From the IMG/VR virus record IMGVR_UViG_3300009494_000372: a DNA stretch of 64,000 nucleotides; one strand, given 5' to 3'. The stretch is from a virus. Position 1 is the first letter of the stretch; each line of letters begins with the position of its first letter. Under the pieces are notes generated by a model. The model saw only the letters and a list, made by a program, of their open reading frames with translations, was not told the DNA's origin and did no database searches. The position numbers were made by a program, and so were the translations under genes. Of this stretch, positions 44,918-46,655 are shown one piece after another.

Positions 44918-46655
44918 TGTGACGCAAAGATATTATGTGGTTCATATTTTCTATGGCTCGCAGAATCTCAATGTTTTTCACTACATTCATGGCTCGCAAA
45001 CTTTCTATGGGGTGCATCAATCCTTTGGCTCGCAAATGCTACATGTGGTTCACTCTTATTATGGCTCGCAATAACTGTTTGGGGTTCATGTATGCTTTGG
45101 CTCGCAAATTTTCAATGGGGTGCATTAGACGAAATGGCTCGCAAGTCTTCTGTGAGGTGCATCGATCTTGTGGCTCGCAGAATTACTATGTTGTTCACTT
45201 GTATTATGGCTCGCAACCATTGGATGGAGTTCATGGATTCTATGGCTCGCACACCGAGTATGGGGTTCAGTCTCTCTATGGCTCGCAGCCAATCTTTGTG
45301 GTTCACTTCACTTATGGCTCGCATTAATGCTATGTGGTTCAACTGGCTCTTGGCTCGCAAGTTCTGAATGTGGTTCATCTATTCCGTGGCTCGCACCTGT
45401 ATCATGTGGTTCAAATGGATGGTGGCTCGCAAATGATCTTTGTGGTTCACGCGTCCCATGGCTCGCAATTTATCAATGTGGTTCATCTTTACAATGGCTC
45501 GCATAGCTTCTCTGTATTACAATTTTAGGATGGCTCGCACACTCTCGATGGGGTTCAGGCATAATGTGGCTCGCAAACATTCAATGTGGTTCATAGCTAA
45601 AATGGCTCGCACAGCTTCTCTGTATTACACATCTACTTTGGCTCGCAAATCTTCCATGTTGTTCATTACGTTTCTGGCTCGCGAATGCCCATTGTGGTTC
45701 ATGCATCCTGTGGCTCGCAATTTTCTCATGTGGTTCATCTTGTCTATGGCTCGCACTATCTCTATGTTATTCACTATTCGAATGGCTCGCACGTATCCAA
45801 TGTGGCTCAACTACAGTATGGCTCGCAAACATTTAATGTGGTTCATTCCTAAAATGGCTCGCAAGTTCTGAATGTGGTTCATCTATTCCGTGGCTCGCAC
45901 ACTCTCGATGTTGTTCACATATAGTCTGGCTCGCAACGTTCATGTGTGGTTCACTCTTTTTCTGGCTCGCAGCTCTCTAATGGTGTTCATACGACCAGTG
46001 GCTCGCACCTGTATCATGTGGTTCAGTTTCGCAGTGGCTCGCATTTGGATATTGGAGTTCAACCTACTTCTGGCTCGCAATTCATCAGTGGGGTTCAGTC
46101 TTCCCATGGCTCGCAATAAACTTCTGTGGTTCATCTGCTTTTTGGCTCGCATCGCATCTCTGTATTACAATTTTCAGATGGCTCGCAATCTTCCAATGTG
46201 GTTCATTCTGTCAGTGGCTCGCACTTATGTGATGTGGTTCAGCATATATCTGGCTCGCAACACTAATATGTGGTTCATCTTGTCTATGGCTCGCAGCTCA
46301 TCAATGGGGTTCATGTTTATCATGGCTCGCAACGCCACCCTGGGGTTCATTCATCGAATGGCTCGCAAGCTTTTATTGTGGTTCATCTCTAAGATGGCTC
46401 GCAATTTTCTCTTGTGGTTCACATCATTTATGGCTCGCACAGCTTCTCTGTATTACACATCTACTTTGGCTCGCAATCGCTGTATGGGGTTCATTTATGC
46501 TTTGGCTCGCAAACTTTCTGTGGGGTTCATCACAGTTCTGGCTCGCAACCGTGCAATGGGGTTCATCCTTTTTATGGCTCGCAGTTTTCTTTTGTGGTTC
46601 ATTCCATCTATGGCTCGCAAATGGGCTTTGCGGTCCATACTTCTTTTGGCTTGAC
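44918..46655 (-). ncRNA. TIGR array (tandem interspaced guide RNAs): 46 complete 36-nt units plus degenerate end units
   Basis: On the minus strand: edge repeat TGCGAGCCA (47 copies, plus-strand starts 44954 to 46611), 9-nt spacer, loop repeat TG(A)AC(C)(A/C)CA, 9-nt spacer; only one 37-nt unit (45098). Confidence 0.92.

Follow-up and report, generated by a model that had tools for sequence, protein, structure and literature searches.

The stretch of DNA analysed here (hereafter the window; 64,000 nucleotides (nt), IMG/VR record IMGVR_UViG_3300009494_000372) comes from a marine sediment metagenome. It is virus-like and encodes a tail protein as well as several genes of apparent TnpB type. It carries a tas gene and, directly after it on the minus strand, a TIGR array; because 36-nt units with UG...CCA edges adjoin a Tas homologue, the locus is classed as a TIGR-TasA system. 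Guides and guide halves recur within this array, and this recurrence is the subject of the present study. The locus comprises:

44918-46655, minus strand: dual-repeat TIGR array with 48 units, 36 nt each apart from one of 37 nt (at 45098); terminal units degenerate
46608..47573, minus strand: tas, 321 amino acids from a GTG start, with a predicted Nop-type RNA-binding core, TasA-like
46611..46646, minus strand: degenerate array unit in the 3' end of tas, as read from sequence

The array has a repeat period of 36 nt, laid out as 9 + 9 + 9 + 9 nt, and is longer than the 44990-46538 given in an initial annotation of this DNA. Plus-strand units have the form TGGCTCGCA, 9 nt, TGTGGTTCA, 9 nt; read on the minus strand, TGCGAGCCA is the edge repeat, and TGAACCACA or one of its variants is the loop repeat. 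In published TIGR arrays both repeats run from UG (box D) to CCA (box C) on the RNA, and the edge repeat has an extra base pair (PMC12045711). The edge repeat on the RNA strand, UGCGAGCCA, fits this signature in full (UG, CCA and the extra C-G pair). The loop repeat, UGAACCACA, is A-rich and keeps the UG and the final CA, with A as its third-last base in 69% of the units and C in 28%; most arrays having this edge repeat contain the loop UGAAACCCA. Two alternating repeats, spacers of ~9 nt and a 36-nt unit together give the layout of a dual-repeat TIGR array.

The minus strand is most likely the transcribed one, since it agrees with the tas orientation, carries the UG...CCA motif and has the array straight after tas. 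The plus-strand "left half" and "right half" of the initial annotation therefore correspond to the predicted tigRNA spacers B and A, respectively. By homology, tas and the array would be co-transcribed from this strand, the transcript would be cut within the edge repeats into 36-nt tigRNAs, and the two 9-nt spacers of each tigRNA would pair with opposite strands of a DNA target.

Residues 53–171 of the window Tas align to residues 142–261 of TaTasR (PDB 9MTY, the TasR structure of Faure et al.) with an E value of 1.3e-21, and 52 residues precede this core. The match to TasH (21kl) has an E value of 0.0018. A Pfam search returned a single weak match (PF02371) and no nuclease family, and the PHROG assignment is phrog_4285. 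The TaTasR match and the weak PF02371 match indicate that the gene adjacent to the array is the Nop-domain tas of a TIGR-Tas system. Given the 52 residues before the core and the lack of a nuclease family, the protein is predicted to be TasA-like, with neither a RuvC nor an HNH nuclease domain. Its true start may lie ~10 codons further in, because close Tas relatives have only 309–312 amino acids. The first perfect edge repeat (46611-46619) codes for the last three tas codons, C-E-P, and spacer A of unit 1 opens with the three bases of the tas stop TAG (46608-46610). The degenerate unit occupies the last 12 codons of tas (46608-46646), and spacer A of unit 1 also starts with TAG in four related arrays (L001, L003, L005 and L009, described below).

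The locus resembles TIGR-TasA (Faure et al., Science 2025, PMC12045711; e.g. FpTIGR-TasA of Flavonifractor plautii) in its 36-nt units of edge, 9-nt spacer A, loop and 9-nt spacer B, in the UG...CCA edge with an extra C-G pair, in the small nuclease-less Nop-type Tas next to the array and in its virus-like carrier. It differs in having 48 units, where 5–15 are commonest in that paper, in a loop that mostly ends in ACA and not CCA, and in an array that begins inside the last tas codons. Additionally, the paper suggests that the short repeats minimise recombination, whereas duplicated and chimeric units are frequent in the window. The Nop and coiled-coil core has its best sequence matches in TaTasR (PDB 9MTY) and SpTasH (PDB 21kl and others); unlike them, the window protein has no N-terminal RuvC or HNH and carries a ~65-residue insertion after the shared core.

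The initial annotation had reported duplicated units and shared half-spacers in the array, and every coordinate and sequence of that observation holds. The recurring elements, all on the minus strand, are:

45351..45386 and 45855..45890, minus strand: duplicated unit, exact over 36 nt and identical over 46 nt
45603..45638 and 46431..46466, minus strand: duplicated variant-loop unit, exact over 36 nt
45396..45404 and 46008..46016, minus strand: half CCTGTATCA (spacer B, TGATACAGG), partner halves differing at 7 of 9 positions
45540..45548 and 45900..45908, minus strand: half CACTCTCGA (spacer B, TCGAGAGTG), partner halves differing at 5 of 9 positions
45738..45746 and 46278..46286, minus strand: half TCTTGTCTA (spacer A, TAGACAAGA), partner halves differing at 6 of 9 positions
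45513..45521, minus strand, and also 45621-45629, 46161-46169 and 46449-46457: variant loop TGTATTACA (RNA UGUAAUACA)

Sequence comparison reproduced both exact duplicates (45351=45855 and 45603=46431), whose identity spans 46–47 nt, that is, the unit plus the following edge repeat. The same left half is joined to unrelated right halves in units 45387/45999 and 45531/45891, and the same right half to unrelated left halves in units 45711/46251. The two units with CCTGTATCA are identical over 28 nt, covering edge, half, loop and one more base; the two copies of CACTCTCGA sit with different loop variants. Near-identical halves, with 1 mismatch each, are found at 44999/46512 and 45089/46494. Altogether, the window contains 7 identical same-class half pairs. 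In 20,000 shuffles that permuted each spacer column among the units, thereby preserving the marked positional composition of the spacers, the mean was 0.084 such pairs and the maximum 3; shuffling within spacers gave a mean of 0.020. Random recurrence of 9-mers, against which the observation was to be checked, thus accounts for little of it. No identical cross-class or reverse-complement half pair was found in the window array. Half-sharing is therefore real, non-random and strictly in register, A with A and B with B.

We collected related loci by exact-protein look-ups and a search for the repeat pattern. Elements with a Tas 86–88% identical keep the order protease-tas-array, and arrays with the same repeats have 70 units in L001 and 39 units each in L003 and L005. 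A Tas-protein search of viral and metagenome contigs gave no relatives, lineage-specific repeat patterns retrieved no further arrays of the lineage from IMG/VR, and short contigs for P0004 and P0006 contributed just ~4 more units. Half-sharing recurs in these relatives: for example, TTGTAAAGA (in L001) and TTGAAAGCG (in L003) each have two partners, and TCTACAGTA has three when L003 and L005 are taken together. A wider scan for the repeat pattern, reduced to non-redundant arrays, yielded 93 that have this edge repeat and comprise 1,605 units. They contain 11 whole-unit and 24 half-only identical pairs, mostly in long arrays, where ~1 identical pair is expected. Half-sharing, whose absence from other TIGR arrays would have spoken against the initial annotation, is thus present in related and unrelated arrays alike, as a general trait of this array family. 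One half switch (L022 against L129) was set aside, as it lies at a contig end.

Several recurring units of the window have counterparts in these relatives. Orthologues are found in L001 for unit 45531, one of the two with CACTCTCGA, and in L003 and L005 for unit 45711, one of the two with TCTTGTCTA. In unit 45891, the half joined to CACTCTCGA differs from L003 unit 7 by 1 mismatch. In L009 (1103-1349), the same Tas protein as in L003 (P0005) is followed by a different array, in which unit 1 has spacer A of window unit 1 with an unrelated spacer B and later units match units of L001; such a difference next to identical tas genes suggests that arrays are exchanged or diverge rapidly.

A short-read assembler could in principle have made chimeric units or false duplicates in such a periodic repeat. 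As an independent check of the assembly, we used Logan contigs (k=31) of the same sample, probably from the source run; this was the sole run containing the stretch and so is not an independent sample. No half-sharing unit is split across k=31 contigs; the contigs that hold these units have a depth of 19-27x. The contigs break exactly at the two exact duplicates (45351=45855; 45603=46431), and a 47-nt contig covering a duplicated unit only (45602-45648; one duplicate-only contig is listed) has a depth of 43 against ~20 in its neighbours. Depth bins holding duplicate copies climb to ~52. Given the normal depth of half-sharing units and the roughly doubled depth of the duplicate, the units and duplications are real, whereas the order of the blocks between the exact duplicates is taken from the original assembly alone. 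Supporting this, the arrays of L001 and L002, from different samples and assemblers, are identical across 57 aligned units, and L003 equals L004 and L005 equals L006; half-sharing occurs in these arrays too, which different samples and pipelines assembled identically. We therefore regard an assembly artefact as highly improbable.

The closest pair of arrays shows how such loci change over a short time. Between L003 and L005 the tas genes differ at 2 of 930 bases, the upstream DNA is identical and the downstream DNA is 98% identical. Their arrays (L003:8345-9790 and L005:1356-2800) share a collinear backbone of 26 units and identical ends but differ at 8 internal sites, with 22 units confined to one array. 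Seven of the eight differences are gains or losses of whole units at edge repeats. One orthologous unit has kept its spacer A but carries unrelated spacer B halves in the two arrays; the half found in L005 recurs there seven units upstream. By eye, several of the units confined to one array have orthologues in the window or L001, which argues that the two arrays differ in good part through losses from a larger ancestor. Substitutions numbered 7 in 468 spacer bases and 0 in 468 repeat bases; spacer drift (1.5%) is close to that of the non-coding flank (1.8%).

Over longer times unit order is lost. The window and L001 (10927-13490) share 17 orthologous units in random order (longest increasing run 5 of 17, p = 0.95), with marginal micro-synteny (3 neighbour pairs, 0.8 expected, p = 0.04). 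Array turnover is thus internal and fast and scrambles order in the long term. A CRISPR-like polarised acquisition was rejected, since change between L003 and L005 is internal with identical ends and order between the window and L001 is random. As in CRISPR arrays, guide units are lost and duplicated through repeats, and near-identical genomes differ in their arrays; unlike in CRISPR arrays, change in the window family is not polarised at the leader end, order is scrambled between relatives, and the second, internal repeat of TIGR permits half-guide chimeras that are impossible in CRISPR. Small blocks (CATTAT.., GACATG.., AAGTAG.., TTTTAG..) look circularly permuted across the window, L001 and L003, which would fit tandem block duplication followed by trimming.

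Comparison of units sharing a half separated two processes. When spacer B is identical, spacer A differs at 0–3 positions in 22 pairs and at 5–9 positions in 13 pairs. This bimodal distribution indicates that some partners are mutated copies and others are unrelated, so that whole-unit copies undergo point mutation and some halves are truly replaced. Related units differ by 61 mismatches in 32 pairs, of which 56% are transitions and 41% involve A; mutagenic copying of spacers of the diversity-generating retroelement (DGR) type was rejected, as differences are not confined to adenine. When a half is shared, 35 of 59 partners across the loop are related, compared with 9 of 50 neighbours across the edge, and exact runs of two halves are in phase in 8 cases and out of phase in 0. 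Linkage is therefore stronger across the loop than across the edge, which makes the processed, edge-to-edge unit the preferred copying module and the edge the commoner breakpoint. Whole duplicates are never adjacent (6–44 units apart), and half-only pairs are often 1–5 units apart. The loop variant accompanies the shared half in 17 of 24 half-only pairs (5.4 expected), whichever half is shared. Loop co-inheritance, or microhomology beside the loop, was discarded as a marker of the breakpoint, because the loop goes with either half and leaves the breakpoint unplaced.

We favour DNA-level duplication, deletion and exchange at the 9-nt repeats, commoner at the edge than at the loop, with chimeric guides as by-products, and assign this reading a probability of roughly 0.55. 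A 9-nt repeat every 18 nt would permit misaligned replication or recombination. Exchange at edge repeats, the commoner event, would copy or remove whole units, and exchange at or next to a loop repeat would fuse the spacer A and spacer B of different units into a chimeric guide; point mutation would then erode the copies at about the rate of the flanking non-coding DNA. For the molecular route we infer slippage, unequal exchange or short-patch copying. The initial annotation had placed recombination at the loop repeats. Exchange at short repeats on the DNA level is indeed the simplest cause of half-sharing, but the loop is not the main breakpoint, as the linkage across loop and edge and the seven edge differences between L003 and L005 indicate.

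Several observations weigh against the favoured reading. Under simple unequal crossing-over one would expect tandem block duplicates and shared pairs that are out of phase, and neither was observed; whole duplicates in the window family lie at least 6 units apart, with unrelated units between them. A fit needs many later deletions or short double-switch copying, and the random unit order between the window and L001 cannot be reached by deletions alone. Repeats of 9 nt are short for RecA-type recombination. In the A–B partner graph of 164 distinct units from five arrays there were 0 cycles at 0 or 1 mismatch, and units sharing A with one unit and B with another numbered 3, with 1.95 expected (p = 0.31); the graph is sparse and both tests have little power. 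With neither a four-gamete cycle nor an excess of units whose two parents are present, exchange is not proven over replacement of a half by new sequence, and the combinatorial reassortment of existing halves put forward in the initial annotation gains no support from these tests. Exchange also leaves the origin of new halves unexplained: reshuffling makes none, so it is insufficient alone as the suggested answer to how arrays diversify without Cas1-Cas2.

Candidate chimeras with both putative parents are window unit 45891 and L005 units 29 and 36. Unit 45891, the best candidate in the window, combines spacer A and the loop variant of L003 unit 7 (1 mismatch) with spacer B of unit 45531; L005 unit 29 has spacer A of unit 11 and spacer B of unit 36. 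The data fit equally an exchange of existing halves and a duplication of the whole unit after which one 9-nt half is overwritten by new sequence through half-by-half acquisition. Overwriting requires the partner graph to be a forest, as it is, and most partner halves of half-only pairs are unique among the 164 distinct units. The differing stretch is usually exactly one half flanked by shared loop and edge, orthologous half switches are seen (L003 units 35/36 against L005 unit 36; L009 unit 1 against unit 1 of the window and L001), and the lack of out-of-phase pairs agrees with the model. However, no adaptation gene or mechanism is known (PMC12045711; 10.64898/2026.09.09.750476), the "new" half is sometimes present elsewhere (TTGTCCAGT in L005 units 29 and 36; GACTAYATG in window unit 45891 and L003 unit 7), and a source sequence for the spacers was not found in 0.6 Mb of own and related DNA. 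Taken as a whole, we hold half overwriting to be rather unlikely.

Dispersed copying could also proceed by copy-and-paste of single units through tigRNA-sized pieces, for example by reverse transcription with template switching at the loop and insertion at an edge. In its favour, the copies keep the phase of the processed 36-nt unit, lie scattered and share no flanking synteny (8 of one unit and one of two units), both parents of the chimeras remain in place, and unit order is scrambled. Against it, substitutions between copies are neither adenine-biased nor unusual, and no integrase or reverse transcriptase is linked to TIGR loci generally (PMC12045711). We consider this route improbable and retain DNA-level exchange at the repeats as the preferred explanation.

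The variant loop marks a group of related units. Four units share TGTATTACA, and their left halves are related: TAGCTTCTC, CAGCTTCTC (twice) and TCGCATCTC. On the RNA strand this loop, UGUAAUACA, differs from the others in its interior only, with the UG and CA ends intact; in TasR the interior of the loop repeat has no base-specific contacts (PMC12045711). Loop and spacer B form one clonal module (GAGAAGCTG, GAGAAGCTA and GAGATGCGA), which is attached to two unrelated types of spacer A. The minus-strand unit AAGTAGATG-TGTAATACA-GAGAAGCTG (RNA AAGTAGATG-UGUAAUACA-GAGAAGCUG) is present in two copies in the window and as a single copy in both L001 and L003; the L005 version has one mismatch. The loop was absent from the other arrays of the set outside the window, L001, L003 and L005. 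Import of these units, which had been considered, does not agree with a module conserved across the related arrays and keeping its UG...CA ends; they are an old, lineage-specific clonal sub-family and a further case of half replacement. The strong conservation of the TGTATTACA unit suggests an important target.

Half-sharing might instead be adaptive, with guides that share a half aiming at related targets, or recombination being selected to build 18-bp specificities. The diverged TGTATTACA units 45495 and 46143 represent an old chimeric type that has been retained, and activity has been published for one full and one partial spacer match (PMC12045711), which would leave room for such use. The search for targets, however, gave none for any unit in 0.6 Mb of own and related DNA; the initial annotation had proposed checking shuffled pairs for real targets. 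With both possible geometries and up to 3 mismatches, 18-mers matched the window, L001, L003 and L004 no more often than in two control geometries. A free-geometry search of the 0.6 Mb, requiring one exact half and, within 40 nt of it, the other half with no more than 1 mismatch, gave 35 matches with no preferred arrangement, where a rough estimate of chance is ~20. Exact 18-mers of the conserved TGTATTACA unit had 3 and 4 matches in IMG/VR, in 2 and 2 unrelated sequences, which is about chance.

Two further results bear on adaptive use. The inferred derived forms (such as WIN#10, WIN#20 and L001#16) are each private to a single array, whereas the parental forms are common to several arrays, and, as noted for L003 and L005, spacers drift about as fast as flanking non-coding DNA. 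By our own arithmetic, a random join of two 9-mers has a chance of ~1 in 10^4 of finding a site in a 5-Mb genome. Because no target was found, derived forms are private and random joins rarely have a genomic site, we regard most chimeras as by-products of exchange at the repeats, with adaptive use possible in some; target-driven sharing as the general cause appears doubtful to us.

To our knowledge, TIGR systems have no analogue of Cas1-Cas2. A broader proposal would give TIGR arrays an evolution of their own, independent of Cas1-Cas2, in which units are pasted to scattered internal sites, halves are exchanged or replaced to yield modular dual guides, and selection keeps the few that find a target; we put it forward tentatively, as an unlikely possibility. 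The emergence and expansion of TIGR arrays and the origin of their spacers are acknowledged open questions (PMC12045711; 2026 survey of 6,685 arrays, 10.64898/2026.09.09.750476), and a literature search found no report of shared half-spacers in TIGR arrays. The system is thus a known one, and the evolutionary pattern, apparently unpublished, is a useful clue to these questions. The locus and its relatives yield measurable facts: arrays change much faster than the adjacent gene and do so internally, not at one end; the processed unit is the copied module; and half-guide chimeras form regularly. These data narrow the possible mechanisms. They also affect the prediction of natural targets, as some units are probably non-functional chimeras or drifting copies.

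Further features surround the array. Directly upstream of tas, on the minus strand (47786-49273), is a gene for a cysteine protease of the papain family that also has an F5/8 type C (discoidin) domain; the protease-tas pairing is kept in L001–L004 and L010. Elsewhere in the window, the phrog_506 transposase family has strong matches at 3660-5033, 26262-27575 and 60635-61876 and a weaker one at 22596-23942. A homologue of these open reading frames in L001 has Pfam OrfB_IS605 and Cas12f1-like TNB domains, and for this reason the window copies look like TnpB-type genes.

Within the array, the 37-nt unit (45098-45134) has a one-base insertion beside the loop, and single 37-nt units occur in L001, L003 and L005 as well. 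Both spacers of the window are purine-rich on the RNA strand (A 37%, C 13%). A weak positional pattern, T-W-G-A-A, is seen at the start of the spacers (0.2–0.7 bit per position); it is lineage-specific, and both a ghost of common descent and a target motif were considered for this bias.

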